Part shown: positions 1,960 through 31,985 of the stretch, piece after piece | How positions within the stretch are numbered: the first letter of the stretch is position 1 | Layout: every line of letters starts with the position of its first letter | Assembly (NCBI RefSeq): GCF_000341395.1 | Contig: NC_020304.1 | Coordinates: 30,001-62,000 of the forward strand | DNA from: Desulfocapsa sulfexigens DSM 10523 | GTDB lineage: Bacteria; Desulfobacterota; Desulfobulbia; Desulfobulbales; Desulfocapsaceae | Length of the DNA stretch: 32,000 nucleotides | Direction: 5' to 3' | Position numbers and translations under genes: made by a program | The notes under the pieces: model-generated | The model's input: the letters and a program-made list of their open reading frames with translations, nothing else | Databases searched by the model: none | What the model was told of the DNA's origin: nothing

Positions 1960-2022
1960 TGAGAAAACGTGACCACGCCGGGTCAAAACCTGCAAATACT
2001 TGCTGTCATTTCTAATACTTAT

Positions 2023-2313
2023 TCATTTCTTACATTCCTTTTTTATATCAGGCGCAGGCGCCACTAAACAGTCTAAAAGAAATGTTTGCTCTTCTTCATT
2101 AAGGTCGGCACCACGTCGTTTAACCATCCGTTTTATAGTTGCGTCCCAACGACGTTTTGATTTTTCATCCACCTGGCTACAGACACGATCCAGATAGTGA
2201 CAGGACTGGCAACGGTTCAACAAAAGTTCAGCACAACCTGCCTTTGATTCAGCTTGCACACTAAATGGCACCATAAGATAGAGAAATACGACGACAGCAC
2301 TACACCACTTCAT
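2023..2313 (-). CDS. Small secreted monoheme c-type cytochrome (96 aa from the internal ATG)
   Basis: The ATG at 2313 is preceded by AAGGAG at 7 nt spacing. The signal peptide is MKWCSAVVVFLYLMVPFSVQA and there is a single CQSCH heme-binding motif. The track ORF extends to 2361, but that start has no RBS. Confidence 0.7.
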   Translation of the reverse strand: MKWCSAVVVFLYLMVPFSVQAESKAGCAELLLNRCQSCHYLDRVCSQVDEKSKRRWDATIKRMVKRRGADLNEEEQTFLLDCLVAPAPDIKKECKK

Positions 2314-2403
2314 ACATTTGCTCCTTTGATCGCTGAATTCTGCTACACTCTTTGGAATCAATATAACTGTTTACCACGGTAGCACAAAATTCACAAAAAA
2401 CAA

Positions 2404-2581
2404 CCTGATTACCACTAATCCTCAGCCTGCACGCCTGAGGAGGAGTTGGTTCGTGTTGATTATATGGGCATCTGCGGCCTGGACGGCCACAGCAGAGCCC
2501 CCAGGGATGGGTTTATGGCGTCCCTTATAGTCGACACGGAACAGCTCCGGGTTGCAAAGCTGAGTTTCGATGGTAATCAGG
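2404..2581 (-). ncRNA. Candidate ~176-nt structured small RNA, rod-shaped (6S-RNA-like architecture)
   Basis: An 11-bp closing helix pairs 2571-2581 with 2404-2414. A second helix is CUCAGC/GCUGAG. The apical hairpin at 2472-2492 is CUGUGGCC-GUCCA-GGCCGCAG; its U-G pair is valid only on the minus strand and would be C-A on the plus strand. The 3' side is A/C-rich and unpaired. A promoter-like element lies just upstream, and a U6 tract (2395-2400) lies 4 nt after the helix. Confidence 0.5.
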
Positions 2582-2588
2582 AAAAACA

Positions 2589-2617
2589 ATTATTCGGGTG
2601 AAACGATAACATTACAA
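2589..2617 (-). promoter_or_regulatory. Sigma70-like promoter for the candidate sRNA
   Basis: Read on the minus strand: TTGTAA (2612-2617), a 17-nt spacer, AATAAT (2589-2594), then 7 nt to the first base of the closing helix. Confidence 0.4.
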
Positions 2618-2695
2618 AACAAACGCCAGTTTCTTCATGGGGGAACACTAATCAGGAACGACAGGTTCCCCCTGCATGAATACCTGTCCAATCAA

Positions 2696-3967: not shown

Positions 3968-4258
3968 GTCACTCCTCCTGCGTCAAATAAATCATTGCGG
4001 CCGTTGGCCATTATTCCCTTTCCTGACAAAAAAGAAAAGGACTCCATTTATTCATATCGACACATCCTGAAAATTGTTAACGACCGTAATGCCCTTTCAT
4101 CTTGACAATGGATGGGTTACGTTGTAAGCATCTTGGTTTGCCTACTTTTTTATCTTTTTTTTACAAAGAGGATAAAAATAAAAGAGAATTCACAAACAAA
4201 CAATCTGTCGTTTTTTATAAACCAGCGGATATATCTTTTAACCAATCAGGAGTAATGC

Positions 4259-5401
4259 ATGTGTCGTTTAGCCCTGAAAACCGCCAGTGAGGCCTTCTCT
4301 CCATATGAAGTTCTCCAGGGCATGGAGGCTATGCAGGAAGGTTACGATGGCTCCGGCCTCGGACTTCTTCTGCGCGGTCTTGATTTTGATGATTACACCT
4401 ACAATACCAAAAACCCAGTTCTTTCAGGTATTGCCCATACTGAAGAGGCGTGGGACCGTCTCAGGAACTATATGGACAGTCACGGTTTTGAACTGAAGTA
4501 TGACCATGACTTTGACACCGCTCCCGGTCATCTGAAAGCACATAACAGATATCGTTATTTTCTTCGTGTTTACAAGTTACCACAATCAATCTCAGAGAAG
4601 TCAGAGGAAGAGATTGAGCATGATTTAATGATGACCCGGCTTGCACTCAGAAAAGACGGAGAACTCCATGGCGACGATCTCACAGTTTTTTCTTTCTGGC
4701 CAGATGTTGCCACTATCAAGGAAGTTGGCTGGCCACTTGAAATTGGTGACGGGCTGAGACTGTTCGACAACCGGATCAAATCCCGGGTCTGTATGGCACA
4801 GGGACGTCAGAACACCAACTACGGGATCAACCTTTATGCCTGCCATCCCTTCTTTATCCAGGGAATCGCCACCATGACCAACGGGGAAAACACTGCTTTT
4901 GTTCCCATCCGTGACTGGCTGCTCGGCAAACATTTTCCAGGATACACCGGATATCAGAGTGACTCGGAGACCTTCACACACATTCTCCACTACACCTTAA
5001 AGCAGCTCAAACTCCCTCTCCAGGCCTACAAACACATCATCACCCCTCTTCGGGGCGATGAACTGGCCAATCATCCTCAGGGAGATTTTTTAAGAGGTCT
5101 TCGTGATTCCTGTCGACGCCTTATCATTGACGGACCCAATGCAGTTATTGGAACCCTGCCCGATGAGACCTGTATGCTGGTTATGGATCAGAAAAAATTA
5201 CGCCCCGCAACCGTGGGTGGAAGGCCTGGTGCCTGGGCAATCGCATCAGAAATGTGCGGTGTTGATGCCATGGTACCCGACCGTGATCCATCACTTGATT
5301 TCCAACCCATGCGTGAACACACAATTCTTGTACCACCAGAACGAAAGGAACTGACAATATGGTCTCAGCACGATCCGTATCCGTTGGGCCAGGCAGCTTA
5401 A
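4259..5401 (+). CDS. Glutamate synthase, class-II glutamine amidotransferase subunit (archaeal-type GltB domain 1)
   Basis: The protein starts MC..., giving the catalytic Cys2 of Ntn-type amidotransferases. A GGAG RBS is present. The gene lies immediately upstream of the FMN and GXGXG subunits. Confidence 0.75.
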   Translation: MCRLALKTASEAFSPYEVLQGMEAMQEGYDGSGLGLLLRGLDFDDYTYNTKNPVLSGIAHTEEAWDRLRNYMDSHGFELKYDHDFDTAPGHLKAHNRYRYFLRVYKLPQSISEKSEEEIEHDLMMTRLALRKDGELHGDDLTVFSFWPDVATIKEVGWPLEIGDGLRLFDNRIKSRVCMAQGRQNTNYGINLYACHPFFIQGIATMTNGENTAFVPIRDWLLGKHFPGYTGYQSDSETFTHILHYTLKQLKLPLQAYKHIITPLRGDELANHPQGDFLRGLRDSCRRLIIDGPNAVIGTLPDETCMLVMDQKKLRPATVGGRPGAWAIASEMCGVDAMVPDRDPSLDFQPMREHTILVPPERKELTIWSQHDPYPLGQAA

Positions 5402-6999
5402 GCTACACTGACCTGCCCTGGATAATCCAGCACCGCGAAGATAGATGTACCCTCTGTGGTCATTGTACCGCAGTTTGTCCTAAAGAGGCAATCTATCTCG
5501 CCTATAGACGCCAGAGGATGCCAAAACTTGACGTCCTCAAGAAAAAACGCGGCAATGAATACCGTACTTTTGTCGGTATCCGCCAGAAAAAGAACATGGC
5601 CAATGCCTGCATCGGTTGCTCCATGTGCTCCATGGTCTGTCCAAACGAGGCAATCCAGCCCGTTCCCAATACTAACGAGCACAGAACTCTCTTCTTCAAC
5701 AACCAGAAGGGTGAGCCCATGAAGCGTGGCGGCAGACGTAACGAAGTCGGCCCCACCCTGCTTGACAGGATCATGTTTAACCGCATTTCAATGCTCACCG
5801 ATCCGGCACTGGATGCCGGACGCCACGAGTTCAGTGTTACCACAACCCTGGGTCGCACTCTTGATCCGGCAGAGTTCCTGAAACGCACGCGCGAGGGGGG
5901 ATGGATTCCGCCAACACGGGAAATATTTCCTTTTGTAATCGGCTCCATGTCTTTTGGTGCGCTGTCGCCAAATATGTGGCTTGGGTTGCTGCAGGGTGTT
6001 GCCTATTGTAATGAAGTACTTGGTATCCCAGTCGTTATGTGTACTGGTGAAGGAGGATGTCCTCCATGGGTTCTGAAAAGCCCCTACCTCAAGTACATTG
6101 TCCTGCAGATTGCATCCGGTTATTTTGGTTGGGATGAGATCATCCGGGCCATTCCCGATATGCAGTGTGACCCTGCCGCCATAGAAATAAAATATGGTCA
6201 AGGTGCTAAACCAGGCGACGGCGGACTGCTTATGTGGTTCAAGGTCTCCAAGTTGATTGCTCGTCTTCGCGGTGTGCCCGAAGGAGTAGACCTTCCGTCG
6301 CCTCCTGTGCACCAGACGCTCTATTCCATTGAGGAATCGGTGATGAAGATGATCCAGACCCTGTCCACCGCCTTTGGTCACAAGGTTCCGATCTATCCAA
6401 AGATCTCGGCCTCAACGAGTGCCAAATCAGTACTGAATAATCTGGTACGTAATCCCTATGCCGGTGGTCTGCTGATCGATGGAATCGATGGTGGAACAGG
6501 TGCTGCTTACAACGTCTCCATGGATGCAACGGGACACCCTATTGCCTCCAATGTGCGTGAGTGCTATCTCGATCTGGTTGCACAGGGTAAGCAGAATGAA
6601 ATTCCCATTTTTGCAGCCGGCGGTATCGGTAAAAATGGTAATGTCACCCAGAATGGTCTGGCACTTATCATGCTTGGCGCATCCGGTGTTCATATTGGAA
6701 AATACGTAATGCAAGCTGCTGCAGGTTGTCTTGGCAACGAGAGAAACCGCTGCAATGTCTGCAACGTTGGTATCTGCCCGAAAGGTATCACCAGTCAGAA
6801 TCCTAAACTGTACCGTCGTCTTGATCCCGATCAGGTAGCGGAACGTGTCGCTGAGGTATTTATGTCCATCCGTACTGAGATGAAGAAGGTCATGGCACCG
6901 CTTGGACGTTCCCAGTCCCTGCCGGTTGGCATGTCCGATGCTCTGGGAATTGGTGACAAGGATGCTGCCGACAGACTAAATATAAAATATGTATGTTAG
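5359..6999 (+). CDS. Glutamate synthase FMN/Fe-S catalytic subunit (GltB domain 2) with an N-terminal 2x[4Fe-4S] ferredoxin module
   Basis: The ferredoxin module shows CTLCGHCTAVCP and CIGCSMCSMVCP. The TIM-barrel signature follows: FVIGSMSFGALS, IEIKYGQGAKPGDGG, LIDGIDGGTGAA, AAGGI. The start overlaps the upstream gene by 43 nt. No later ATG would keep the first Cys cluster. Confidence 0.85.
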   Translation: MVSARSVSVGPGSLSYTDLPWIIQHREDRCTLCGHCTAVCPKEAIYLAYRRQRMPKLDVLKKKRGNEYRTFVGIRQKKNMANACIGCSMCSMVCPNEAIQPVPNTNEHRTLFFNNQKGEPMKRGGRRNEVGPTLLDRIMFNRISMLTDPALDAGRHEFSVTTTLGRTLDPAEFLKRTREGGWIPPTREIFPFVIGSMSFGALSPNMWLGLLQGVAYCNEVLGIPVVMCTGEGGCPPWVLKSPYLKYIVLQIASGYFGWDEIIRAIPDMQCDPAAIEIKYGQGAKPGDGGLLMWFKVSKLIARLRGVPEGVDLPSPPVHQTLYSIEESVMKMIQTLSTAFGHKVPIYPKISASTSAKSVLNNLVRNPYAGGLLIDGIDGGTGAAYNVSMDATGHPIASNVRECYLDLVAQGKQNEIPIFAAGGIGKNGNVTQNGLALIMLGASGVHIGKYVMQAAAGCLGNERNRCNVCNVGICPKGITSQNPKLYRRLDPDQVAERVAEVFMSIRTEMKKVMAPLGRSQSLPVGMSDALGIGDKDAADRLNIKYVC

Positions 7000-7082
7000 T
7001 ACCTTAGAAATTCTTTTTGTTTTTCACTAAAAAGAATTTTCTGAAGGTACCTTACACCGGCCTACTACCCGTATTCCGGTGT
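6999..7082 (+). promoter_or_regulatory. Two intercistronic stem-loops between glutamate synthase genes
   Basis: Hairpin 1 (6999-7050) has ~20 bp with two single-nt bulges and a 10-nt loop, and it starts at the stop codon. Hairpin 2 (7054-7082) pairs ACACCGG with CCGGUGU around a 15-nt loop. Neither is followed by a T-run. Confidence 0.55.
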
Positions 7083-7147
7083 TAATGAGTTAATCGTTTT
7101 TAGTTTTCCTTCATTTAAACTAAGACTTTTTTCATAAGGAGTTTTCT

Positions 7148-9511
7148 GTGAGTGCTACTGTTGTAAAAGGCCTGGACAAAAATGGCCGTAGAATCAGTTC
7201 CATGGACTTTGAAGCCATGGTTCAGGCAGCTGCCAGAACAAGCAGCTCCATCCAGATCGAATCCATGGGCCAACATAACCTTGGAATTCGACTGCAGCAT
7301 GCAGACGGTTTGTCCATTGAAGTATCCGGACCCACCGGACAGCGTCTTGGCTGCATGGGAATGCCTGGAACCACCATCACCTGTAAAGGTGCAGCATCCG
7401 ACGATGTCGGCTACCTGAACATTGGTGCAGAAATCACCGTACTTGGCGATGCCACCAATGGTGTCTGTAATGCCATGGCCAACGGAAAAGTCTATATAGG
7501 CGGATCAATTGGTGCCCGTGGACTGACCATGACCAAATGGAATCCAGATTACGAAAAACCCGAGCTCTGGGTACTCGGCTCTGCAGGTGATTCCTTTGCA
7601 GAGTTTAATTGTGGCGGCGTAGCTGTTATTTGCGGTGAGAATGCAAAAAACCCCGAAAATGTTACCGGCTATCGTCCCTGTGTGGGAATGGTTGGCGGCA
7701 CCATCTTTTTCCGTGGTAAAACAGACAATTCTTATTCCAGAAATAATGCCCGTCTGGCACCTCCGACGGATGAACAGTGGCAGTGGCTCGAAGAAAACAT
7801 GCCTGGCTATCTTGGGAAAATCGGGCGTGAAGATCTAAAAAATTCCCTCCTGGTTCGCGATGAATGGCAGGTATTAAATGCTGTTTCCCCACAGGAAAGG
7901 GCATTGCTTTTCTCAGGCCCCATGCCCATGGCTGAATTTCGCAATAAACACTGGAATCAGGCTTTTGGTGGTGGAGACCCGCTTCGCGATCTGGCACCCG
8001 GCCTTGACCGTAGCCCAATTGGGGCAGTACCCACCGGGGATATGCGCCGCAAGAAACCCTATTGGGCCAACCGTGAGTCAGCAGCTCCCTGTACCTATTA
8101 TTGTCCGGTGCATATTCCCACCGTTGACCGTTTACGATTGATCCGTGACGGACAGATAGACGAAGCTTATGAAATGCTGCTTCAATATACACCGCTGCCT
8201 GCATCTGTCTGCGGTGCTGTTTGCCCGAATCTCTGCATGGAGAACTGCTCCCGCCAGGGAGTGGATGATCCTATTGACGTTCAGGTACTTGGTCGATCCG
8301 TAAGTTCTGCCAGATCTCCTGAAGTTGCAGCTTCACTTGGGAAAAAGGTTGCCATCGTTGGTGGTGGGCCTGCTGGAATGAATGCTGCCTGGCAGCTTGC
8401 TCACGCCGGTGTTGAAGCCCATATATTCGAAAAAGACGATTTTATCGGTGGTAAGCTTGCCCAGGTAATTCCATGGGAACGACTGTCCCAGGCCATATGG
8501 GATCAGGAAGTAAAACGGTTCCTGGAAACTCCAAACATTCACACCAACCTTGGCGTGGATATGAGCAAGGAAACTTTCGCCAAACTTAAAGAAGAATTTG
8601 ATTATGTGATTGTTGCAGTTGGAACCCACGAGCCTCGCAAGATTCCCTTTCCTGGACATGAAACAGTTATCCCGGCACTTGACTTCCTGAAAAAAGCAAA
8701 GAGTGCAACTCCTGAGAAGGTTGGCAAAGAAGTCGTTATTATCGGAGCTGGTAATGTTGGTTGTGATGTAGCCTGTGAAGCCTATCGGCTTGGTGCGGAA
8801 AAGGTAACGCTCGTTGATATCCAGAAACCTCTTGCTTTTGGTAAGGAAAAGGAAGCAGCCGAGGCACTTGGTGCGGAATTTCGCTGGCCCGTTATGACCA
8901 GAGAAGTCACTCCTGAAGGCCTTGTAATGGATACCGGTGAGCTCATTCCTGCTCAGACAGTTATCATCTCCATTGGTGATGTTCCCAAACTCCAGTTCCT
9001 TCCAGACTCCGTTGAAACGCTTAGTATTGGAGGTGCGGCCTGGCTAAAAACCAATGAAGCACATCTCACCACCGATGCCAAAGTTCTTGCCATTGGTGAC
9101 GTTGAAAGACCTGGTCTTGCAACCAATGCTCTTGGTGCCGGTAAGACAGCTGCAGAATATATTATTTCGCAGTTCAAGGGAGAAGAGTGGAAACCTTTTA
9201 CGAAAAAGGTAATCACTCAACAGGCACTGACCATTACTCATTACATTCCCGATCTTGAGCATGAGCATTCCCAGGAAAACTCCGCCGAGCGTTGTCTATC
9301 CTGCGCGTCATGCCGTGACTGCCACCTCTGCGAGACAATCTGTCCAGAAGGTGCTATTAGTCGCAGAGAGCTTGAATTTGCTCACACAAATGGCTACGAA
9401 TCCGGGCTTGGAGCATCCTATGAGTATGTTTCCGATGATAAAAAATGTATAGCATGTGGATTTTGTGCCGATACCTGCCCCTGCGGAATCTGGACACTGA
9501 GACCCTTCTAG
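7148..9511 (+). CDS. Fusion protein: glutamate synthase GXGXG domain (GltB domain 3) + GltD-like FAD/NAD(P)H oxidoreductase + C-terminal 2x[4Fe-4S] ferredoxin
   Basis: A GTG start has AAGGAG upstream. The beta-helix GXGXG region covers residues ~60-190. A GltD-type Cys region follows (CTYYCP...CGAVCPNLCMENC). The dinucleotide folds are VAIVGGGPAG and VVIIGAGNVG. The C-terminus carries CRDCHLCETICP and CIACGFCADTCP. Confidence 0.85.
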   Translation: MSATVVKGLDKNGRRISSMDFEAMVQAAARTSSSIQIESMGQHNLGIRLQHADGLSIEVSGPTGQRLGCMGMPGTTITCKGAASDDVGYLNIGAEITVLGDATNGVCNAMANGKVYIGGSIGARGLTMTKWNPDYEKPELWVLGSAGDSFAEFNCGGVAVICGENAKNPENVTGYRPCVGMVGGTIFFRGKTDNSYSRNNARLAPPTDEQWQWLEENMPGYLGKIGREDLKNSLLVRDEWQVLNAVSPQERALLFSGPMPMAEFRNKHWNQAFGGGDPLRDLAPGLDRSPIGAVPTGDMRRKKPYWANRESAAPCTYYCPVHIPTVDRLRLIRDGQIDEAYEMLLQYTPLPASVCGAVCPNLCMENCSRQGVDDPIDVQVLGRSVSSARSPEVAASLGKKVAIVGGGPAGMNAAWQLAHAGVEAHIFEKDDFIGGKLAQVIPWERLSQAIWDQEVKRFLETPNIHTNLGVDMSKETFAKLKEEFDYVIVAVGTHEPRKIPFPGHETVIPALDFLKKAKSATPEKVGKEVVIIGAGNVGCDVACEAYRLGAEKVTLVDIQKPLAFGKEKEAAEALGAEFRWPVMTREVTPEGLVMDTGELIPAQTVIISIGDVPKLQFLPDSVETLSIGGAAWLKTNEAHLTTDAKVLAIGDVERPGLATNALGAGKTAAEYIISQFKGEEWKPFTKKVITQQALTITHYIPDLEHEHSQENSAERCLSCASCRDCHLCETICPEGAISRRELEFAHTNGYESGLGASYEYVSDDKKCIACGFCADTCPCGIWTLRPF

Positions 9512-22662: not shown

Positions 22663-23565
22663 TTATTTCTTCTGTTCCTTACGATCTGGACAGGTACGTT
22701 TCAGCAACTTGTTGACACTGATCCGCATCCGGTCAATGGAATTAGCAAGTCCACCTATCTCATCGTTTGAATCGGTATGAATAGAATCACAAAGATTTTT
22801 ACCAATACTGATATCCTTGGCTGCATCTGACAGGTGGATAATAGGCGCCACAACCGATCTATCAAGAAAAACCCATATACAGATAATTGTTACCAGCAGA
22901 CAGCCAATACCGACAAAGAAGATCTTCATAGCAGACTGCTTGGCATCTGCAAGCGTCTTTGAAATGGAAATATAAATGATGGATGTTCCAACGGTAGAGT
23001 CCATCTTCCAGTTGTAGCCATTCTCAGTACCATAAATATCACGCTGATCAGCAGGGGCATCGGCAGGGTCACCATGACAGGTCAAACAAAACGCCTTATC
23101 GACCTTAATGGGCTTTGCTGTATAAAAATACTTTTTACCGTCCTTATCCATGACACCTTGCTGCTCGGTTGCTTGAGGATTGGAGGCAAAGTACTGAATA
23201 ACACCCTCCTCTTGCGCATTGGCTTTATTATCTGGCCAGAGAGGATCGAGAGTTGCCTGTTTGAAAATATATCCTTCCAGTGTTTCCTGAAAAATCTCAT
23301 ATTCCATACGATTGACAACAAACCTGGACATGAGCTCTGGTATAAAGGTGTCTCTATCGTCTATAAGATCTTTAATGAGAGGGTATTGGTCTTTACCAAA
23401 AAACGTGGAACTGGCTTCAATATAATTATAAATAATCTCGCCTTTGCTTTTAGCTTCAGCAATGGCACTCTGCCGACTGAGCATATAGCTTGTATACCCA
23501 ATGGCTATAGTCGCCAACAGACTCAATACTGTGATAATGATAATAAACTTTGACCGTATCCCCAT
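22663..23565 (-). CDS. Membrane sensor: periplasmic heme-c binding domain (DUF3365/Tll0287-like) + TM + HAMP, with no output domain
   Basis: After an N-terminal TM helix, the periplasmic domain carries a single CLTCHGDPADAP motif. A second TM helix and a HAMP-like segment follow (VVAPIIHLSDAAKDI...NDEIGGLANSIDRM), then a stop. GGAGG lies 9 nt before the ATG at 23565 and directly abuts the ATG at 23574. Confidence 0.65.
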   Translation of the reverse strand: MGIRSKFIIIITVLSLLATIAIGYTSYMLSRQSAIAEAKSKGEIIYNYIEASSTFFGKDQYPLIKDLIDDRDTFIPELMSRFVVNRMEYEIFQETLEGYIFKQATLDPLWPDNKANAQEEGVIQYFASNPQATEQQGVMDKDGKKYFYTAKPIKVDKAFCLTCHGDPADAPADQRDIYGTENGYNWKMDSTVGTSIIYISISKTLADAKQSAMKIFFVGIGCLLVTIICIWVFLDRSVVAPIIHLSDAAKDISIGKNLCDSIHTDSNDEIGGLANSIDRMRISVNKLLKRTCPDRKEQKK

Positions 23566-23863
23566 TTCTTGCATCCTCCATACCTTCGTTTTTCCCTAAC
23601 AAGTTTTTCATTACTACTTGCTGAATTTAGGGCAAGTATAGCACCTCTTCTTTTAAATGAAAGCAAGAAATCGAAAAACTTATTGTTTTTTCAGGACCTT
23701 CAAAGCAATAAACGAAATTCTTTAACTGCTCCATTCTCTCCCTCTACACGCCTTTCTCCTTGACAAACATGCCTAAGCTCTACTAAAAATAGGTTAGGAG
23801 AAAGGAAATTCTTTGATTAAGAATAGTTACCATATGAATATGAAGTTTCTTCGGGGAGAAACC

Positions 23864-25600
23864 ATGATAAAGCGTTACACCATGATCGGTCTTGCTGGCG
23901 CAGTGCTTTCAGCGCAGGTGTTCACAGGGACAGCATTTGCTGGACAAACAGCATTGTCACAGGAAGAACTTATAAATGAAATCAACATGTTGAAAAACAT
24001 TGTTCTGGATCTCAACGAACGTCTTGCCGGAGCAGAAGAGATGCTCCAGATGTCTCTTGAGATGAAAGAACAGCAGGATGCTCAAGTTGCGGATGTTGTA
24101 GAGGTTGTTGATGAACTTGACGAACGACTTGGTGACGCCGAAAAACATACCGCACTGGACAGAGTTACCATGGGTGTAGAACTTCAGACCCAGCTCAACT
24201 CCATTCATATGGACGTAGCAACCATGCCTGCAGCCAGTCAAATAATGATTGGTCAGATGGCTGTTGCAGGGTCACAGTTCTCCTCAGCTGAAATGGCCCA
24301 GATCCAGCAGATGATGAAACAGCAGGGGACTGAAAAACAATCTATTGATAATGATGCTCTTTTCACCAGTCGCATCCGTCTGGATCTTAAAGCAAAACCA
24401 GCCAACTCCCTTTCCTTTGTCGGACGTCTCTCAGCAGCCAAAGTTTTCGGCGATTCTACGGGAGTCAAATGGTACAATGGTGGCCCCAATGCAGTCACAA
24501 TGGATGGCAACATCCACAGTAATGGTAGTGACTCAGCCCTCCGTGTAGAGCGTGCCTTCTTTACCTATTTTGGCGATATGGGTGACGTTCCCTATCACTT
24601 CTCCCTAGGCAGGCGTCCCGCACTCGGTGGTGCCCCTGCTGAATTTTCAACATCCAGTATGGTTGGTGGCTCCCCCATGGCCCATGGTATCAACTGGCAG
24701 TTTGATGGTGCCTCCCTTGGTTTCGGCCTTGCCGACATAACAGGAATTCCTGGAGCGAACTTCAAACTATGCTGGGGGGTTGGCTTTGAGTCCGGAGTCG
24801 GTTCAGGAAACTCCTACTCCATGTCCTACAATTCTGACATCGATGACATGCAGTTTGGAGGATGGATTGCCAATCTGTACCAAGATGAAAACACTACAAT
24901 AACAAACATGTATGCCCATGCGGCAAACGTAACCGATGGATTCTCCGGTCTCGTTGTTACCCCCTTCACTTTGAATGGCCAGGATCTTAATGGTGACGGA
25001 CAATACGACCAATTTCAAATGAACGCCAATGATGGCGCCTATATCAGCCGTACAGAACCTACTGCTAATATCGGCTCCATTGACATCGTCACCCTGCTTG
25101 CACAATCAAAATTTGCCCAGGTTGATTTTTTTGTTGATTTGGCCATGAGCCATGCCAGACCTTCAGGACTTTCAGCAAACCCAACCATGCAACTCCTTGG
25201 TACTGACGCTCTACTTAACTCCAACGGAGAACAAAATGACCGTACTGGTTACTCTATCTGGGCCGGTGTCAAAACTGAGCTTCCATGGCAGGCAAGCATT
25301 GGATTTGAGTACAACTGGGGTTCAGAATACTGGATCGGCTTCACAGGCGGTGAAGACAATCCTGCCGGCTCCAAACTAGCTACCCGTGGATCCGTTTATG
25401 AGGTCTTCTATAACCATCCAATGGTAGAGAACAAGCTCACTCTTTCCATCGGAGCCCAGTACTATGACTACGACTACTCAGGAAGTGGTAATCCCATGGG
25501 CGCACCTGTTAAAATTGGAGAGCTGAGTGCACTTGATGCCTTTCTCCCTGTTACTGAAAGTATGTGGAACTATTACATGAACCTTGTGTATCGCTGGTAA
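23864..25600 (+). CDS. Putative outer-membrane beta-barrel protein with N-terminal coiled coil (DUF3373-like)
   Basis: GGGGAGA lies 5 nt upstream of the ATG at 23864. The signal peptide ends in TAFA|GQ. The coiled-coil stretch LSQEELINEINMLKNIVLDLNERL is followed by a long Gly/aromatic-rich region. The protein ends in ...NLVYRW, a terminal aromatic typical of OMPs. Confidence 0.6.
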   Translation: MIKRYTMIGLAGAVLSAQVFTGTAFAGQTALSQEELINEINMLKNIVLDLNERLAGAEEMLQMSLEMKEQQDAQVADVVEVVDELDERLGDAEKHTALDRVTMGVELQTQLNSIHMDVATMPAASQIMIGQMAVAGSQFSSAEMAQIQQMMKQQGTEKQSIDNDALFTSRIRLDLKAKPANSLSFVGRLSAAKVFGDSTGVKWYNGGPNAVTMDGNIHSNGSDSALRVERAFFTYFGDMGDVPYHFSLGRRPALGGAPAEFSTSSMVGGSPMAHGINWQFDGASLGFGLADITGIPGANFKLCWGVGFESGVGSGNSYSMSYNSDIDDMQFGGWIANLYQDENTTITNMYAHAANVTDGFSGLVVTPFTLNGQDLNGDGQYDQFQMNANDGAYISRTEPTANIGSIDIVTLLAQSKFAQVDFFVDLAMSHARPSGLSANPTMQLLGTDALLNSNGEQNDRTGYSIWAGVKTELPWQASIGFEYNWGSEYWIGFTGGEDNPAGSKLATRGSVYEVFYNHPMVENKLTLSIGAQYYDYDYSGSGNPMGAPVKIGELSALDAFLPVTESMWNYYMNLVYRW

Positions 25601-25739: not shown

Positions 25740-25777
25740 GGGGGCAGGCCGAAATTTTCGACCTGCCCCCTTTTTTT
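25740..25777 (+). terminator. Rho-independent terminator after the outer-membrane protein gene
   Basis: GGGGGCAGGCCGA pairs with UCGACCUGCCCCC (12 bp plus one mismatch), followed by T7. Confidence 0.85.
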
Positions 25778-25829: not shown

Positions 25830-27965
25830 ATGCTCTCTGCCAAAAAAGCTGTTTTCTTTATCATTCCCTTGCTCGGCCTTTCCTTCGCACCTGCAAACAT
25901 CGTCAAGGGAGCAGAGCTCAGTCAATGCGCTCTTTGTCATACAGATCCTGAGTTAATAGACGAATTAACAGAAGAAGCCATCATGTATGGCGAGGGAGAT
26001 CCTGAAATTTCCTCCAGACAGATAGGTAATGGATATGGTGTAAAACAGGCACCATTTGATCTTTATGAAAAAATCCTAGTAAGCGAGTCTTTTCTCTCCT
26101 CCACTCATGGACAAATCCCCTGTCAACTCTGCCACCTCGGAAATCCTGACAGCAATGATCCGGCAACCGCCCACGCCGGAATGCTGAGAGATCCAAGTCT
26201 CAGCAGTACGGAAACATGTGGCCAGTGTCATGAAGACATCGTCTCAAAGGCTATCAACTCACTACACATGAACGCCACCCCACTGTACGCATCTCTTGAA
26301 AAAAGATGCAGCAGGGAACAAATGGATAGTATGAAGGAATCCACTCTTCAAAAGCAGTGCCTTAGTTGCCACCAGGGAAGCTGTGGATCATGTCATGTCA
26401 GTAGGCCTGCCGTTTCTGGAGGTGGCCTGCGACAGGGGCATATTTTCAAGAAAAAACCTGACTTTGTTGACCAGTGCCTTCCCTGCCATACCTCCCCTAC
26501 CGGTAATGATTTCATTGGCAAAAACGGGAAAGGCGATGTGCACTATCGCAAACACCAAATGACCTGCTCCGGTTGCCATTCCGGGCCTGAATTACATGCC
26601 TCCGCCGGGAAAGCAACAAACAGATATCATTTTGACCAGCGTCCCCAGTGTATCGACTGCCACACAGACATCTCCACTGGCCCGATTCCCGAGCATGTCA
26701 CTCATAAGAATGTTTCATGCTATGTATGCCATGCAGCACCTTATCAAAATTGCACATCCTGTCACATCGGCTTAGATGAGAACGGTGTTTCCTATTCACA
26801 ATCCTCTCCCCCAAAGCAGAATTTCAAGATTGGACTGAATCCAGACAAAAAAGGTGCGCGTTATGTTCTCATGCGCGAAGTAGGCATTCATCGAGACACC
26901 TTTAAAAATGATATTGGAAAGATGAAGCGATTCTCAGCCCTTCCCACTTACAAAATGGCAACACCCCACACAATCCAGCGGCGGACTTGGCAGACTGCAG
27001 ATTGTAATCACTGCCATGGAAACAAAGACCTTTTCCTGACGCAGGATACTGTGCCCTTTGACGCCATTGTAGCCAACAACCATGTCCTGCTAAAGTCCAC
27101 CGATATCCCAGAAAAAGTTCAGACAAAACGTTCGTTTATCCTTTCCCCAACCCATCCCGACCCAGCCATGCGGGTTTCCGCGGACTGGTTAAAAAAACAT
27201 TATAAGGATAAAAATCTTGTCATTCTAGATACCCGGACCAAAGCACAATACGAAAAAGGACACATTCCAGGAGCCTATCACCTCTGTTTCTGTCTCTTTA
27301 GAACAGGAGCCGAAGCTACTCCACCATACATGATGCTATCTCCTCAAGAGCTCGCCAAAACTTTAGGCGGTCCGCGTCTTGGACTTTCCCCAGATACCCG
27401 CGTGGTTCTCTACGATGATGGGCACAGTGGTCGTGGTATAGTTTTTCTGGCATTACAGATGATTGGCCATCAGAAAATCTCCTTTCTCGATGGCAATATC
27501 TCTTCATGGGAACAGAGTGGTTTCACCCTTGCTAAGGGAAAAGCACCTCAGGCAAAGGTGAACGATTATCCTGTTAAGGCTACAAACCCTCTTGTGGACA
27601 ACCATGGTATTATCGAACTCATGGGTTCCGGACAGGCTATAGTGGTTGATGTCCGCAATGCTGCCCAGCACAATGGTCATATGAAACGATCTGATATCAC
27701 GAAGAAAGGAGGTTCCATCCCGGAATCTCTGAGCTTTCCATTACAGACTGTCGTTGACGGTGAAGGAATGATTCATTCTGATGAGCGTTTATCCTGGTTG
27801 CTCTCCACAGCCGGCATAAACCAGTCTCGAGAAAAAAAGATCATTGTAACCTGCAATACGAATATGCTGGCTGCAGAGTTCTATATGATACTGACCTACC
27901 TCGGATACGACAACGTCAGAATCCACGATGGCTCATGGGCTGAATGGTCTGCAGAATTTCAATAA
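25830..27965 (+). CDS. Secreted undecaheme c-type cytochrome fused to a C-terminal tandem rhodanese (TST/SseA-like) module
   Basis: A Sec-type signal peptide is present. There are 11 CxxCH motifs between residues 33 and 396 (nt 25926-27017). Rhodanese domain 1 (LVILDTRTKAQYEKGHIPGAYHL) has no active-site Cys. Rhodanese domain 2 (IVVDVRNAAQHNGH...GGSIPESLSFP) has Cys675 in the loop CNTNMLA (nt 27852-27854). Confidence 0.85.
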   Translation: MLSAKKAVFFIIPLLGLSFAPANIVKGAELSQCALCHTDPELIDELTEEAIMYGEGDPEISSRQIGNGYGVKQAPFDLYEKILVSESFLSSTHGQIPCQLCHLGNPDSNDPATAHAGMLRDPSLSSTETCGQCHEDIVSKAINSLHMNATPLYASLEKRCSREQMDSMKESTLQKQCLSCHQGSCGSCHVSRPAVSGGGLRQGHIFKKKPDFVDQCLPCHTSPTGNDFIGKNGKGDVHYRKHQMTCSGCHSGPELHASAGKATNRYHFDQRPQCIDCHTDISTGPIPEHVTHKNVSCYVCHAAPYQNCTSCHIGLDENGVSYSQSSPPKQNFKIGLNPDKKGARYVLMREVGIHRDTFKNDIGKMKRFSALPTYKMATPHTIQRRTWQTADCNHCHGNKDLFLTQDTVPFDAIVANNHVLLKSTDIPEKVQTKRSFILSPTHPDPAMRVSADWLKKHYKDKNLVILDTRTKAQYEKGHIPGAYHLCFCLFRTGAEATPPYMMLSPQELAKTLGGPRLGLSPDTRVVLYDDGHSGRGIVFLALQMIGHQKISFLDGNISSWEQSGFTLAKGKAPQAKVNDYPVKATNPLVDNHGIIELMGSGQAIVVDVRNAAQHNGHMKRSDITKKGGSIPESLSFPLQTVVDGEGMIHSDERLSWLLSTAGINQSREKKIIVTCNTNMLAAEFYMILTYLGYDNVRIHDGSWAEWSAEFQ

Positions 27966-28149: not shown

Positions 28150-28842
28150 CTATTCACAAGTCTTGGGCTTTTCAGCATCAAGTGCGTACTGCCGAAAAAA
28201 CTGATGGAGATGCTCCAGCTGTGCGATGGAGTAATTATAGCTATCAAATTCTGGCATAGCCTTTTTTAACTTCTTAAAGTCATTGGTAAAGAAACGATCC
28301 CATGCCTTCTTGGTGCGATCAGCAGGAGACAGTATAGGGGCATTATTTTTCTTGTGACAGGCCAGGCATTTTCGGAAGATATAACGTCCCTTACCGGCAT
28401 TACCCGCATCCATATCGAACTTTTCCTGGTTCGTGGCACTGGTCTTACTGGCAGCTTTCTTCATCGCCGAGGAGGACTGTGTTGTTGTTCTCTGGGGCAT
28501 GGCAGCGACAGCAGCACTTCCTGAATTATTTTTCACTGCAGTATCAACAAGATAACGATGAATATTCTCCAGCTGTCTATCATTAATTCCAACAGCAGAG
28601 AAATCATGATCCATCTCCCTTAATTTCTTGTAATCGTTAGCAAAAAAGACTTCCCACGCCTCAGCACTCCGTTCCTGAGGCTGTAAAGATGTCAGTCCTT
28701 TTTCCTTATGACATGAGCGACAGGTCTGAATAGCATACTTCCCCCAAAGGGCATTCCCGCCCATAGAATCAAAGGCAGCCTGAGAATCCTGTACTGCAAC
28801 AAACAACAAGCCAGCAACCATGGCTGACGCAAACATTTTCAT
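28150..28842 (-). CDS. Secreted diheme c-type cytochrome made of two homologous modules joined by a Ser/Thr/Ala-rich linker
   Basis: A GAGGAG RBS is present and the signal peptide ends in SQA|AF. The heme motifs are CRSCH (residue 41) and CLACH (residue 159). The two modules align as FD..GNA..G.Y....C..CHK...L.P..R...AW..FF.ND.KKL...F...QLE..H. Confidence 0.8.
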   Translation of the reverse strand: MKMFASAMVAGLLFVAVQDSQAAFDSMGGNALWGKYAIQTCRSCHKEKGLTSLQPQERSAEAWEVFFANDYKKLREMDHDFSAVGINDRQLENIHRYLVDTAVKNNSGSAAVAAMPQRTTTQSSSAMKKAASKTSATNQEKFDMDAGNAGKGRYIFRKCLACHKKNNAPILSPADRTKKAWDRFFTNDFKKLKKAMPEFDSYNYSIAQLEHLHQFFRQYALDAEKPKTCE

Positions 28843-28963: not shown

Positions 28964-30766
28964 CTATTCGTTATATTTTCCACCTGACTGCCTTTCAATA
29001 AAGCCCCAATAGGGGTAATCCACCTCATATTCTGCAATCAGCCCGGGACTATGCTCTCTGCTGGCAACAAGCCAGAGTTTATTTCTTCGTCTCTGCTCGG
29101 TCACAGAACTGAGTGGGTCCCAATCCGGATACAGCACCATGGCGTTATCAGCACTGTACTCTATATCACCTGAACCCTTAAAAACCCCAAGATGCGGCGT
29201 TTCCTTATAGCTCTTCCCATCCCCCCTGGAAAGTTCTGAAATAACAAGGAAAGAGACGTTCAATTCATCACGAATGGATTCCATTTGTCTCAGCCAGGCA
29301 TCAATACCTGTTCTTCGTTCTGAAAAATCCTTAAATGGTAACTTATGCAGGCTATCTATTACGACAATTGTATAATCGCTATGGGTCTCATGGTGGATAA
29401 AATCAATATGACGACGCATAATTTCCGGAGTTACCTGCCTGTCATTGATAACCCTGAAAAACTGCAGCATCTCTTGAAGGCGTTCGCAGGCCCCCCTATA
29501 TCGTGCCGCCTCGTCAGGGCTGAAAGATCCTTTCCGTATTGCCTCTGAAGAGAGTTGACTCAAGCGGCAAAGCGTACGATGATACAGTTTCTGACGACCA
29601 TTTTCGAAGTCATAATACAATACCGGAATGTTGCGCAATGCCATATCAGTGGCTATCTGGATCAAAAAAGTGGACTTCCCTGACTTTGGCGCTCCACCTA
29701 CGACATTAATACCGTGAACGCCATCAAGAGCGTCGTCGAAGAGTGGAAATCCTGTTCTAAGAGCCATGTAGGAGGATCCCCCCTCCATGGAAAGCTGTTC
29801 CTGGAAATGCGCATATTCCCGCGATGGAGTCGTGAAAGGAGAAAAGGCCCTGGCACCCTGAATCAACGCAGAAACAGCAGCACGAAACTGCTTGCCTTTA
29901 TCTTTTGCCAGCTGGCATAGAGTGTAATCTTTTGCCAATCCAACGGGCCACCTGAATGGTCGCACCTTATACCCTATACGAGCGGCGAGTTTTCGCATAC
30001 TTGCTTCAGCCTCGGCACTGTTACTGGTAACTAGAAAAAGGGTTTTGATAAAAGCAAACCTCTGCGGATCGATACTCTCAAGCACATGAGAGTCGGGCAC
30101 TGCTACAGCAGGGTATCCTAATTGCTTTAAGGCGAGAAGTGTCTCTTCCCCTTCACAGAGAAAAAGGCTGCCATTTTCACAACGATTTATGTCCTCCACA
30201 TTAAAAATCTGATACTCCTCACTAAAGAACTGTTCATTACCATGCCAGAAATAATCATCCTGACGGTCAGGAAAGACACAACGGGCAGCGTAGCAGTTTC
30301 CATCCTCCTGGAAATAGGGAAAAACAATATAGCGTCCATTGAAGCCAACATGCAATTGAGACAGAGCATCCTGCCCTATCCCTTTCTCACTAAAGCGATC
30401 CAGCAGTGGTTCTGTGAAATTCCCCTCATAGGATTGTATCTCAAGATTTCTATTTGCGGAGGGATAGTCAGCGGTGCTTAGAATTGGTTCCCGGTCAGGG
30501 TCATAACCAGGAACCTTAGCAAGATCGATACCTGACAGCTTAGCAAACCAGAGAGGAAAGCCACCGGGGACACAGTTGTTCAGACAACGAAAATAACCAT
30601 GAAAGAAACCGCTCTTTTTGAGGAAAACAACTAATCGATCATGGGGGTCAAATCCCCTTTCGTGACAAAAGGGACAATCGGCGGTCAGATGTTTTTTTTC
30701 GCCCCTGGCATTTACAAGATTACGCTGGTAGAATTCCGCAACACTATCATTCAGCTCAGTTACCAT
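28964..30766 (-). CDS. T7 gp4/Twinkle-like protein: Zn-finger + Toprim (degenerate) + DnaB-family RecA-like helicase domain
   Basis: The Zn finger is CPFCH...FRCLNNC. The Toprim region has LCEGEETLLALKQLGYPAVAV, but the DxD position reads TSNS. The helicase domain has Walker A GAPKSGKS, Walker B IVVIDS, SELSR and GSGDIEYSADNAMVLY (DnaB H4-like). Confidence 0.75.
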   Translation of the reverse strand: MVTELNDSVAEFYQRNLVNARGEKKHLTADCPFCHERGFDPHDRLVVFLKKSGFFHGYFRCLNNCVPGGFPLWFAKLSGIDLAKVPGYDPDREPILSTADYPSANRNLEIQSYEGNFTEPLLDRFSEKGIGQDALSQLHVGFNGRYIVFPYFQEDGNCYAARCVFPDRQDDYFWHGNEQFFSEEYQIFNVEDINRCENGSLFLCEGEETLLALKQLGYPAVAVPDSHVLESIDPQRFAFIKTLFLVTSNSAEAEASMRKLAARIGYKVRPFRWPVGLAKDYTLCQLAKDKGKQFRAAVSALIQGARAFSPFTTPSREYAHFQEQLSMEGGSSYMALRTGFPLFDDALDGVHGINVVGGAPKSGKSTFLIQIATDMALRNIPVLYYDFENGRQKLYHRTLCRLSQLSSEAIRKGSFSPDEAARYRGACERLQEMLQFFRVINDRQVTPEIMRRHIDFIHHETHSDYTIVVIDSLHKLPFKDFSERRTGIDAWLRQMESIRDELNVSFLVISELSRGDGKSYKETPHLGVFKGSGDIEYSADNAMVLYPDWDPLSSVTEQRRRNKLWLVASREHSPGLIAEYEVDYPYWGFIERQSGGKYNE

Positions 30767-31985
30767 TAATAAGATCCGTCATTTTCTTAGCTTCAAGTTC
30801 AGTGTCAAAACTGATGTGAACAGAACGGCCAGGCTCAGCAGAGTACAGGTTACGCACGGCAACAACGGTTCCGGAAAGACTCACCTGTTTTTCGTGTCCT
30901 TCACTATCACTAAAAAAAATCTTCACTTGACGCCCAAGAAGCGTTCGTGCCTGTTTCCGCTGGGTTATCCTCGACAGAAATGACAATCCTCCTGTGGAGA
31001 TATCACTCCCTTCTCCGCGGATAGTCGTATCTGTAAGTTCTCCACTGTCATCGAGCAGGATGATGTGGATTGAATCCGCCAGTGGAATTCTCTCTTCTTG
31101 ACGCCGTTCAGCACCCGTGCTAAGAAAAAAATCATTCACCTTATCAAATCTAAGACAGTAGTCCTGGATTTTCGCTTCAATGGCTGGATGCTCTTCCCGC
31201 CACTCATCTACAGACTTCATGGAAAGAGTGGACAACTCTACGCTCCCCATACTTGCCGCATTCAGAGTCCATACTGAATCATCAAAAAAGGAGGCCCCAC
31301 CAAAGACATTTCCAGGACCAACCGTCTTCACCAGCGTTTCATTCTCTTTTTCGTTAAAATAGAGTTTCACCCGTCCCTTATTCACAAAGAAAAGACGCCA
31401 CTGGGGATCCCCCTGTTTAACAATAATGGTCTCTGTAGGGTAGGTTTCATGTTCCAGAGAATGATACAAAACATTAAATTCCTCCGTCGTCAGCAGGTCA
31501 TACAAATCCGACCAGATAAGGATATGCCCCTGATCAATTGAATTACTTTTGGCATCTTCTATAATTTCTGCGGCCCTGATAATCTCAGCCAACGCCATAG
31601 CATCTATATCAATCAGACGGAGACGTAATGCTTCTGCCTCATTAAATTTTCTCAATTGGGCCGTTTTTTCAATCAGTGCACTAAGTATTTTTTTCGCAGA
31701 TTCCGCCTTGTCCTTACCCAGTAAGGCGTACACTTCACGTTCTTCCGGGTAATCTGTAATTGGCTCGTATTCTTTCTCAACAGGAGGCGGTACGCTCTTT
31801 ACCACAGATTCCACTGCGGCAGTTCTAGCCTCCTGGTGCTTCTCTACCCTGGCATCCAGGCCACTCCTTTGTGAGTTCTCCTTCTCCTCAATAAGGGCAA
31901 CTGCCAGTTTTGCAGCACGAACACTCTCCTGACCAAACTGGTTGCGACCACCATCAATGATACTCTGCAGCGGTACCAAGGCCAT
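30756..31985 (-). CDS. Cyclic-nucleotide-binding-like (CAP_ED) + PilZ domain protein
   Basis: The CAP_ED-like beta-roll reads IIVKQGDPQWRLFFVNKGRVKLYF...VGPGNVFGGASFF. The PilZ motifs are RRQEER and DISTGG. The stop overlaps the downstream start by 11 nt (ATGGTAACTGA). The frame stays open to the window end, so the true start may lie beyond 32000. Confidence 0.7.
   Translation of the reverse strand: MALVPLQSIIDGGRNQFGQESVRAAKLAVALIEEKENSQRSGLDARVEKHQEARTAAVESVVKSVPPPVEKEYEPITDYPEEREVYALLGKDKAESAKKILSALIEKTAQLRKFNEAEALRLRLIDIDAMALAEIIRAAEIIEDAKSNSIDQGHILIWSDLYDLLTTEEFNVLYHSLEHETYPTETIIVKQGDPQWRLFFVNKGRVKLYFNEKENETLVKTVGPGNVFGGASFFDDSVWTLNAASMGSVELSTLSMKSVDEWREEHPAIEAKIQDYCLRFDKVNDFFLSTGAERRQEERIPLADSIHIILLDDSGELTDTTIRGEGSDISTGGLSFLSRITQRKQARTLLGRQVKIFFSDSEGHEKQVSLSGTVVAVRNLYSAEPGRSVHISFDTELEAKKMTDLINGN

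Follow-up and report, generated by a model that had tools for sequence, protein, structure and literature searches.

What does a chain of haems do when it is built into the same polypeptide as a sulfurtransferase? The question is raised by UWK_00046, a gene of the obligate disproportionator Desulfocapsa sulfexigens DSM 10523, which lies in the 32,000-nucleotide (nt) stretch of genomic DNA analysed here (henceforth the window; coordinates without a locus prefix are positions in it, and UWK_00046 is also called the window protein). Its open reading frame (ORF) is 100% identical to protein P0001 of our set (AGF76634.1/WP_015402333.1), which is publicly annotated only as a "rhodanese-related sulfurtransferase"; the locus tag was assigned because the position adjoins UWK_00047. 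The genome paper counts it among nine rhodaneses and leaves its haems unmentioned there (PMC3739170). We propose, and give the idea about an even chance, that UWK_00046 works as a soluble enzyme of the periplasm, with an 11-haem chain connected to a sulfur-carrying rhodanese, and that it reduces the sulfane sulfur of thiosulfate or polysulfide. The parts of the gene on which the argument turns are the following.

25830 to 27965, forward strand: whole gene UWK_00046, 711 amino acids (aa) plus stop, encoding a signal peptide, an 11-haem cytochrome c domain, a linker and a tandem rhodanese.

25830 to 25913, forward strand: signal peptide region, aa 1-28, read by eye, with likely cleavage after APA22 or KGA28 and without a lipobox.

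25926 to 27017, forward strand: multihaem domain with 11 CxxCH motifs, starting at nt 25926, 26121, 26217, 26358, 26382, 26475, 26565, 26649, 26718, 26751 and 27003.

26034 to 26036, forward strand: Tyr69 codon, TAT; Tyr in 36/36 Desulfocapsa-type homologues, TGA in most relatives and Cys in some.

26307 to 26309, forward strand: Cys160, the sole non-CxxCH cysteine of the haem domain; Cys in 41/47 sequences of alignment A2.

27171 to 27524, forward strand: rhodanese domain 1, aa 448-565, inactive (Pfam stretch 450-562; SseA alignment).

27285 to 27293, forward strand: Cys486-x-Cys488 in rhodanese domain 1; invariant in alignment A1, present in 42/43 sequences.

27582 to 27962, forward strand: rhodanese domain 2, aa ~585-711, predicted active; catalytic loop Cys675-NTNMLA at nt 27852-27872, Arg609 conserved.

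The ORF opens with an ATG that follows a GGAG motif 8-11 nt upstream, and its N terminus, MLSAKKAVFFIIPLLGLSFAPA, reads by eye as a Sec-type signal, as an earlier note on this DNA had held, and has no lipobox; c-type haem attachment requires export, and the protein is predicted to be periplasmic. That note had also described a multihaem cytochrome and a tandem rhodanese in one ORF, and this architecture is upheld by the motif count, Pfam, a PDB profile search and Foldseek. There are exactly 11 CxxCH motifs (residues 33, 98, 130, 177, 185, 216, 246, 274, 297, 308 and 392), against about 0.05 expected by chance from the Cys and His content of the protein; all 11, correctly counted in the note within residues 33-396, are invariant across an alignment of 14 homologues (43-100% identity). 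Together with nine conserved distal His, a Pfam Cytochrome_C7 match above its cut-off (34.4 versus 24.8 bits) and the signal read by eye, these motifs mark UWK_00046 as a multihaem c-type cytochrome. A full HMMER search with the haem domain, covering 1.84 billion representative proteins, returned 418 clusters (50% identity) at an E value of 1e-3 or lower and 104 at 1e-30 or lower, most of them stand-alone proteins of 350-500 aa with about ten haems. The conserved core of this family comprises haems 2-11 and the nine distal His (93, 115, 146, 204, 238, 256, 289, 292 and 380), so that with the partly conserved Met244 one of the 11 haems is left without an assigned ligand. Against the PDB, the family profile matches generic haem modules only, namely GSU1996 (3ov0, E 4e-15), UndA, NrfB, OcwA and OmhA; the chains of the polysulfide reductase MccSep (9wt8 and 9wt9) match it over a 27-residue stretch at E 0.009. 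NCBIfam, searched with the window protein, its relatives and the read-through cytochrome described below, holds no model for the family. Cys160 was considered as a conserved His/Cys haem ligand in the style of TsdA, SoxA and MccSep and rejected: across the wider family, the position holds Ala, Ser, Gly or Thr, and Cys is conserved only in the clade that lacks the selenocysteine discussed below.

The C-terminal half is a member of the SseA/TST sulfurtransferase superfamily. Pfam Rhodanese (PF00581) matches it twice (E 1e-32, 113 bits versus a cut-off of 22), a PDB profile search aligns Escherichia coli SseA (1urh) with residues 450-710 (E 5e-33), and Foldseek superimposes it on 3-mercaptopyruvate sulfurtransferase (3-MST) and rhodanese structures with TM scores of 0.83-0.87, all of which agrees with the tandem rhodanese placed at ~448-711 in the earlier note and with the rhodanese match that it had made the test of its proposal. 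As in SseA, bovine rhodanese and the periplasmic YnjE, domain 1 is inactive, Asp529 occupying the catalytic position (YDDGHSGRG, nt 27411-27437), and the catalytic Cys lies in domain 2, with the same fold and a six-residue active-site loop; the loss in the first domain had likewise been recognized from the letters. Cys675 aligns with the catalytic Cys of SseA (CNTNMLA versus CGSGVTA), and the C-N-T-N loop is found in 41/41 homologues covering the position, so that both the atypical loop and the conservation of the orthologous Cys hold; related clades show the variants CNTG, CNIG and CDTG. Unlike these enzymes, UWK_00046 is fused to 11 haems and carries an export signal, has the extra Cys486-x-Cys488 and, in place of the signatures CRKGVT (TST) or CG[ST]GVT (MST), an invariant CNTNML without basic residues. 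It also scores only 110.8 bits against the SseA equivalog model NF008557, whose cut-off is 250.

Structure prediction was informative for the rhodanese half, where the per-residue confidence (pLDDT) of the full-length model exceeds 90; it is 60-80 or worse in the haem half, and the overall predicted TM score (pTM) is 0.48. Foldseek with this full-length model returned rhodanese matches only, and an AlphaFold2 (AF2) model of the haem domain alone (alignment A3), at pLDDT 48, was too poor for a fold search.

Is the joining of the two halves functionally meaningful? Forty-two full-length homologues (43-84% identity) have the fused architecture, with Arg609, Cys675-N-T-N and all 11 haem motifs invariant. 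The fusion is thus kept in related and distant genomes, and an assembly or frameshift artefact, the alternative against which the earlier note had asked for related genomes to be checked, can be rejected. The close Desulfocapsa metagenome-assembled genomes (MAGs) have the whole neighbourhood in common and are little informative. We scanned one genome per species, which gave 46 loci, and ran hidden Markov models (HMMs) of the haem and rhodanese halves on the six-frame ORFs of all loci (designated L with a number). The two modules are fused in Desulfocapsaceae and other Thermodesulfobacteriota and are encoded by adjacent genes in Desulfuromusa, Desulfobia, Desulfobacterales, Anaerolineae and many Bacillota, including the isolates Dethiobacter alkaliphilus, Desulfitibacter alkalitolerans and Gudongella oleilytica. 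In Bacillota and Chloroflexota, the rhodanese partner is of another type, whose repeats are GlpE/PspE-like and whose loops read CYSGQTA or CGSGWR, and these split rhodaneses are lipoproteins or secreted, as judged from their signal peptides or lipoboxes. In L029 and L035, both from Bacillota, there is a second fusion, with a GlpE-like CYSGQTA rhodanese attached to the cytochrome. This cytochrome shares 58-62% identity with its split neighbours in Bacillota and only 32% with the window protein, and the modules have therefore fused at least twice independently. The cytochrome-rhodanese partnership has outlasted an exchange of its rhodanese member. In distant Desulfobacterota, the genes that surround the pair are unrelated to it, and in Bacillota it is located after ccm or ResB/CcsA haem-maturation genes. 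The conserved unit is the cytochrome with the rhodanese. Because the same modules are adjacent in three phyla and fused at least twice, this Rosetta-stone pattern strengthens the idea, put forward in the earlier note, that an electron wire has been linked with a sulfur carrier.

Several of these loci have features of their own. Complete ccmABCEF sets lie beside the pair in L029, L035, L039, L041, L043 and L044 (about 2000-6800) and ResB/CcsA in L050 (6124-8203), and haem maturation in these Bacillota seems to be maintained chiefly to serve this cytochrome. Near the pair, a LysR regulator is frequent in Bacillota and also occurs in Anaerolineae. In Desulfitibacter alkalitolerans, a 4Fe-4S protein (Fer4_11) and a Ni_hydr_CYTB-type cytochrome b are encoded 3' of the pair (L049:7384-8860) and might together make up a membrane module that oxidises quinol and supplies electrons to the cytochrome. 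Desulfobia has two tandem-rhodanese genes after the cytochrome (L024:8379-10321), the second with Ser for the catalytic Cys (YSNRG). In a deltaproteobacterial MAG, a cytochrome homologue with no rhodanese nearby is split into ORFs of 170 and 147 aa (L033:7118-8089) and may be a pseudogene or an assembly error.

The split cytochromes also bear on what the haem half does. Their database gene models have no signal peptide; in L051 (D. alkaliphilus), L049 and L050, a single TGA separates the cytochrome gene from a small upstream ORF in the same frame, which carries haem 1 together with a signal peptide or lipobox. Across L018-L051, the in-frame stop at the aligned position after haem 1 is TGA in 28/28 genes, within the motif G-x-G-U-G (U standing for the TGA-encoded residue); examples are L051:4980-4982, L049:4887-4889, L050:4965-4967, L021:7163-7165 and L018:7091-7093, which align with the Tyr69 codon of the window. 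From +14 to +30 after the TGA, the genes can form a hairpin with compensatory changes: 77.8% of cells pair versus 57% in shuffles, and the covariation score of 0.463 (versus 0.135) is reached by 0/500 shuffles, with slid controls at 0.176 or lower. The hairpin is missing from genes with Cys or Tyr at position 69, which pair at 47% in the same register. Eight orthologues have Cys at this position (P0038-P0042 and P0044-P0046). An in-frame TGA, a Cys orthologue and a hairpin resembling a selenocysteine insertion sequence (SECIS) are the standard signature of a bacterial selenoprotein, and because all three occur together we consider most relatives of the UWK_00046 cytochrome to be, probably, unannotated selenoproteins. 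Rfam gave no SECIS family match in these relatives, and within the library of papers searched for multihaem cytochrome selenoproteins, the only match was the paper on MccSep, a different, five-haem family. Of the 266 family proteins fetched, 121 have a gene call that starts just past the TGA position, and a large share of the family is therefore probably of the selenocysteine type and mis-annotated. With selenocysteine or Cys at position 69, the cytochrome half of most relatives probably does more than conduct electrons passively; a second possibility beside a catalytic role is that residue 69, as selenolate, thiolate or phenolate, could be an axial haem ligand. The selenocysteine-less clade, to which UWK_00046 belongs, uniquely carries Cys160 and Cys486-x-Cys488, the latter being found only with Cys or Tyr at position 69 and missing from the selenocysteine-type relatives L018-L024, fused and split.

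Public databases systematically mis-annotate this family, P0213 (WP_008516925.1), P0221, P0279 and many JGI entries being examples. NCBI models start past the TGA and lose the signal peptide and haem 1; some database translations put W at the TGA position. UniRef labels one protein of the family "cytosolic," and JGI attaches the label "thiosulfate/3-mercaptopyruvate sulfurtransferase" to cytochrome-only proteins. Separately, at L041:10655-13732, and also in L042 and L043, a 204-aa fragment with a TAT-signal and Fe4S4 domain and an 804-aa molybdopterin fragment adjoin an FdhE gene; together they resemble a formate dehydrogenase interrupted by a selenocysteine codon, in which case those genomes would decode TGA as selenocysteine.

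A physiological link is offered by Dethiobacter. D. alkaliphilus reduces thiosulfate without Dsr or a molybdopterin enzyme for thiosulfate or sulfur (PMC10376724), a respiration termed obscure (PMC10376724, PMC12998232). Its protein P0213 is DealDRAFT_1917, listed just ahead of the rhodanese WP_008516926.1 in the Dethiobacter proteome tables, and its alignment with the UWK_00046 haem domain, which takes in haems 2-11, shows 35% identity over 358 aa (E 5e-64). By proteomics, DealDRAFT_1917 shows significant up-regulation in cells grown on thiosulfate relative to those grown on ferrihydrite, its cluster is carried by both strains that reduce thiosulfate, and the split pair DealDRAFT_1917/1918 (cluster 5-T) has been proposed as a non-canonical determinant of thiosulfate reduction (PMC10376724). 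In the same work, DealDRAFT_1917 was published as an octahaem SirA/Otr homologue; for the haem domain studied here an octahaem Otr/MccA identity was rejected, MccA and Otr being missing from the significant PDB-profile matches. For D. sulfexigens, a thiosulfate reductase has been proposed as the initial step in the disproportionation of thiosulfate (PMC9751629), and surveys recognize no established disproportionation marker (PMC12998232, PMC13490349), the mechanisms in Bacillota being called obscure (PMC12998232). The rhodanese GF1_13980, seen only in thiosulfate-disproportionating Desulfolithobacter, is not this fusion, as it has 437 aa.

Taking these findings together, we envisage a cycle that would begin with Sec export of UWK_00046 and attachment of haem at its 11 CxxCH motifs. 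Thiosulfate or polysulfide would enter the periplasm, possibly via the DUF3373 porin whose gene is conserved upstream (see below). The Cys675 thiolate would then take up a sulfane sulfur to give a persulfide, with release of sulfite or a shortened polysulfide; persulfide formation on the catalytic Cys from sulfane sulfur is established rhodanese chemistry. Two electrons from the periplasmic cytochrome pool, possibly delivered by UWK_00047, would travel along the haem chain, and the persulfide would be reductively cleaved to HS-, regenerating Cys675. The net reaction, S2O3(2-) + 2e- + 2H+ -> HSO3- + HS-, would constitute the thiosulfate-reductase step that opens thiosulfate disproportionation, and with polysulfide the equivalent would be a stepwise reduction. 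In relatives with selenocysteine or Cys, the residue of the Gly-rich loop after haem 1 would probably act as a resolving nucleophile or a haem-proximal catalytic residue, forming an Se-S or S-S intermediate beside the haem as in MccSep and thioredoxin reductase (PMC13510729). The occurrence of selenocysteine or Cys at this position, together with the SECIS-like hairpin, indicates redox chemistry on chalcogen bonds, and MccSep, a multihaem selenocysteine enzyme reducing polysulfide, provides a precedent (PMC13510729). In the Desulfocapsa clade, Cys675 might be reduced directly, or the persulfide might be resolved by the clade-specific cysteines; with selenocysteine or Cys replaced by Tyr69, and Cys160 and Cys486-x-Cys488 gained, the last chemical step is the one that can be assigned least certainly in UWK_00046. 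Architecture, conservation, gene coupling, the TGA with its hairpin and the up-regulation of a homologue are observations; cellular location, substrates, direction, electron donors and the part played by the porin are inferred.

More tentatively, and with somewhat less than even confidence, we suggest that UWK_00046 and its relatives make up a class of thiosulfate/polysulfide reductases that do without molybdenum and have not been described before. Its members would have an 11-haem cytochrome, originally a selenoprotein whose G-U-G loop follows haem 1, acting on a persulfide held by a partner or fused rhodanese. The Desulfocapsa clade would then be a selenium-independent rewiring of it, in which selenocysteine gave way to Cys and then to Tyr69 and in which Cys160, Cys486-x-Cys488 and the covalent fusion were gained. 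If this is true, the class supplies the missing thiosulfate-cleaving step of Desulfocapsa-type disproportionation and also explains the thiosulfate and sulfur respiration of Dethiobacter and other Bacillota.

Several points weigh against a reductive role for UWK_00046. The thiosulfate/(sulfite + sulfide) couple is very low, with an E0' of about -400 mV, and a haem-driven reaction therefore needs low-potential haems and removal of the products. UWK_00046 has Tyr69 and not the selenocysteine or Cys of its relatives, so it may work by another mechanism or have shifted in function. With a pTM of 0.48 overall and low confidence in the haem half, the structure model does not place Cys675 relative to the nearest haem. 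The D. sulfexigens genome encodes several molybdopterin oxidoreductases, which are possible thiosulfate reductases (PMC3739170). Finally, the fusion is limited to a narrow clade, with no named disproportionator isolate among the 46 loci, and therefore it cannot be a general disproportionation enzyme.

Might the haems instead draw electrons off the sulfur? In this alternative, which we regard as unlikely though the best of the rivals, the rhodanese would capture sulfane sulfur or thiosulfate and the haems would pass electrons to periplasmic acceptors, ultimately Fe(III)/Mn(IV) minerals, the variants being a thiosulfate/tetrathionate reaction like that of TsdA and, as part of the oxidative branch of disproportionation, oxidation of the persulfide. 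The ecology is consistent with it: the account of growth in the genome paper has D. sulfexigens growing on S0 only with a metal-oxide sulfide scavenger (PMC3739170), and related Desulfobulbales couple sulfide oxidation to iron-oxide reduction via multihaem cytochromes (PMC12545173). Haem enzymes acting on S-S bonds can moreover be reversible, TsdA being cited as such in the MccSep paper (PMC13510729). Nothing in the sequence of UWK_00046 fixes the direction of the reaction. Set against this, we know of no chemistry for haem-only oxidation of a rhodanese persulfide to sulfite, and the sole expression data show the homologue up with thiosulfate as acceptor and lower on ferrihydrite. Further, the host taxa are mainly sulfur and thiosulfate reducers, and a selenocysteine carried by a flexible Gly loop typically serves the reductive cleavage of S-S or Se-S bonds, thioredoxin reductase and MccSep being examples.

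The genes and features nearest to UWK_00046 are the following.

22663 to 23574, reverse strand: divergent gene for a Tll0287-like protein with one CxxCH (Pfam Tll0287-like, E 4.8e-33) and a HAMP domain.

23813 to 25600, forward strand: upstream neighbour, putative outer-membrane beta-barrel porin (Pfam DUF3373, E 1e-112).

25740 to 25777, forward strand: intrinsic-terminator-like hairpin between the DUF3373 gene and the fusion gene, read from the sequence and not listed by a consensus scan; 12-base-pair GC-rich stem with one mismatch, then T7.

28150 to 28842, reverse strand: convergent gene UWK_00047, a secreted dihaem c-type cytochrome with two CxxCH (Pfam Cytochrome_CBB3, E 2.6e-10).

The true start of the DUF3373 protein is probably the ATG at 23864; the protein has an N-terminal coiled-coil-like segment and ends in YRW. 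In the distant, otherwise non-syntenic loci L016, L017, L047 and L048 (43-50% identity), a DUF3373 gene again lies directly upstream of the fusion, and it and a small c-type cytochrome are the only neighbours kept. A monohaem gene related to UWK_00047 stands upstream of DUF3373 in L016 and L048, and UWK_00047 itself, which has its terminator at 28115-28092 and matches SorB only weakly, is a candidate electron partner of UWK_00046. Porin and small cytochrome are clade-specific additions to the conserved pair. The strong terminator-like hairpin implies that the DUF3373 and fusion genes are separate or attenuated transcripts and not a tight operon. It was not established that the DUF3373 protein is the ExtI homologue reported for D. 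sulfexigens (PMC5877670), NCBIfam giving no Ext match, and a publication on the abundant DUF3373 protein of Dissulfuribacter does not mention the neighbours of its gene. No GC anomaly of the kind that would signal horizontal transfer was found around UWK_00046, and an Rfam scan of the window gave no family match.

The presence of DUF3373 directly upstream in five independent contexts also brings to mind a porin-cytochrome conduit, in which the 11-haem domain would sit in or on the barrel and carry electrons across the outer membrane like MtrAB or Pcc, with the rhodanese as an accessory. The weak DmsE and ExtM-like NCBIfam matches of the 10-haem core, and the presence of UndA, OcwA and OmhA among weak PDB profile matches, point the same way. 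We nevertheless hold this to be improbable. The partner conserved across phyla is the rhodanese and not the porin: in Bacillota and Chloroflexota, the pair occurs with no barrel, there is no porin near the distant Desulfobacterota loci L018-L024, and DUF3373 pairing is confined to one clade. The terminator between the two genes also argues against a conduit. The DmsE and ExtM scores are far under their cut-offs, and the MtrA/DmsE model TIGR03508 matches relatives only, at 33-40 bits versus a cut-off of 192. MtrB has 26 strands. DUF3373 (TCDB 1.B.62) is a putative 18-strand pore family with a barrel region of ~417 aa (PMC4827864), which would be too narrow to sheathe a decahaem.

Handling of selenium or tellurium oxyanions by an ExtH-like rhodanese and a cytochrome that would reduce selenite or tellurite, or traffic selenium, is very improbable: the weak NCBIfam match to ExtH, the rhodanese of a selenite/tellurite reduction operon (37 bits), the weak ExtM and ExtN matches of relatives, their probable selenoprotein nature and the in vitro reduction of selenite by MccSep (PMC13510729) speak for it, but every Ext score is far under cut-offs of 200-800 bits, the Ext-cluster cytochrome is now shown to be a polysulfide reductase of sulfur respiration (PMC13510729), the hosts are sulfur specialists, and UWK_00046 itself has no selenocysteine.

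How, then, does a sulfane-sulfur reductase of the proposed kind compare with known systems? A literature search found no publication describing a cytochrome-rhodanese fusion, so the view of the earlier note that no enzyme of this design had been characterised holds in that respect; it needs qualifying in that relatives are known, namely the Dethiobacter split pair (PMC10376724) and the rhodanese-porin-cytochrome cluster of Geobacter (PMC5877670, PMC13510729). In Geobacter sulfurreducens ExtH-ExtI-ExtJ-MccSep(ExtKL), a periplasmic rhodanese, a pore protein of the outer membrane and a multihaem cytochrome, and thus parts of the same three kinds, are found side by side (PMC5877670, PMC13510729). 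MccSep is a five-haem selenocysteine polysulfide reductase, and the relatives of the window cytochrome likewise carry a probable selenocysteine; in its demonstrated chemistry, haem electrons reduce an S-S bond via a covalent chalcogen intermediate (PMC13510729). The protein families are nevertheless different ones. UWK_00046 scores 37.2 bits against the ExtH model NF040901 (cut-off 200) and lacks the lipobox of that lipoprotein; ExtI is phosphate-porin-like by description, and the porin here is DUF3373. MccSep has five haems, selenocysteine and a His/Cys-ligated active-site haem, as against 11 haems, Tyr69 and a single polypeptide with the rhodanese in UWK_00046, which thus falls outside MccSep, and the probable selenocysteine of its relatives sits after haem 1 in a G-U-G motif. 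In Dethiobacter, the unit is two genes, with the rhodanese, a lipoprotein with two predicted active GlpE-like domains (CYSGQTA), directly downstream of the cytochrome; DealDRAFT_1917 is annotated as a ten-haem protein without its N-terminal 75 codons, which hold the lipobox and haem 1 and end at the TGA (probable selenocysteine).

The likeness to Wolinella succinogenes Sud and Psr, drawn in the earlier note, is one of concept only. It stands on the functional side, in that a periplasmic rhodanese-type carrier hands polysulfide sulfur to a reductase, and fails as homology: Sud is a single-domain homodimer serving a molybdenum enzyme, the rhodanese here is tandem and fused, and the Sud chain (presumably PDB 1QXN) is not among the 53 PDB sequence matches of UWK_00046 at E values of 1 or lower. 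Unlike in Sud-Psr, the carrier and the electron source are covalently joined in UWK_00046, and no molybdenum enzyme is adjacent. Low-potential multihaem cytochromes (c3 and c7) are cited in the MccSep paper as able to reduce polysulfide (PMC13510729). The functionally closest systems are the Geobacter ExtH-ExtI-MccSep cluster and Sud-Psr, neither of which is homologous in detail or has carrier and wire in one chain.

The cytochrome-rhodanese pair is a concrete, clonable candidate for the still missing enzymes that initiate the disproportionation of sulfur and thiosulfate, as it is for Dethiobacter thiosulfate respiration. A widespread cytochrome family has been systematically mis-annotated and is probably a new selenoprotein group. 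Together, these points are relevant to the influence of selenium supply on the sulfur cycle in anaerobic settings.

Among the remaining genes, that for the Tll0287-like/HAMP protein is syntenic only in the close Desulfocapsa clade, and other clades have a methyl-accepting chemotaxis protein or histidine kinase beside the fusion; the protein may be a haem-based sensor of redox state or of sulfide/sulfur. It ends after the HAMP domain, without a recognisable output domain. Beyond UWK_00047, the reverse strand encodes a 600-aa protein with a Cys-rich N terminus and a DnaB_C/AAA_25 helicase-like C terminus (28964-30766), and the start of its gene overlaps that for a protein with cyclic nucleotide (cNMP)-binding and PilZ domains (30756-31985); both genes lie beside the cytochrome module in all close relatives. 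Directly 3' of Cys-type fusions (L048:4966-5739, L016:9120-9869 and the context of P0039) is a 257-aa gene, missing from the window, which is labelled "AbpE_bact" by Pfam (PF27030, precomputed) and "hypothetical protein" by NCBIfam (PRK04334). Elsewhere in the window, three consecutive forward-strand genes (4259-9511) resemble a split archaeal-type glutamate synthase: they encode a 380-aa protein without a Pfam match, a protein with Fer4 and Glu_synthase domains, and one with GXGXG, Fer4_20 and Pyr_redox_2 domains.

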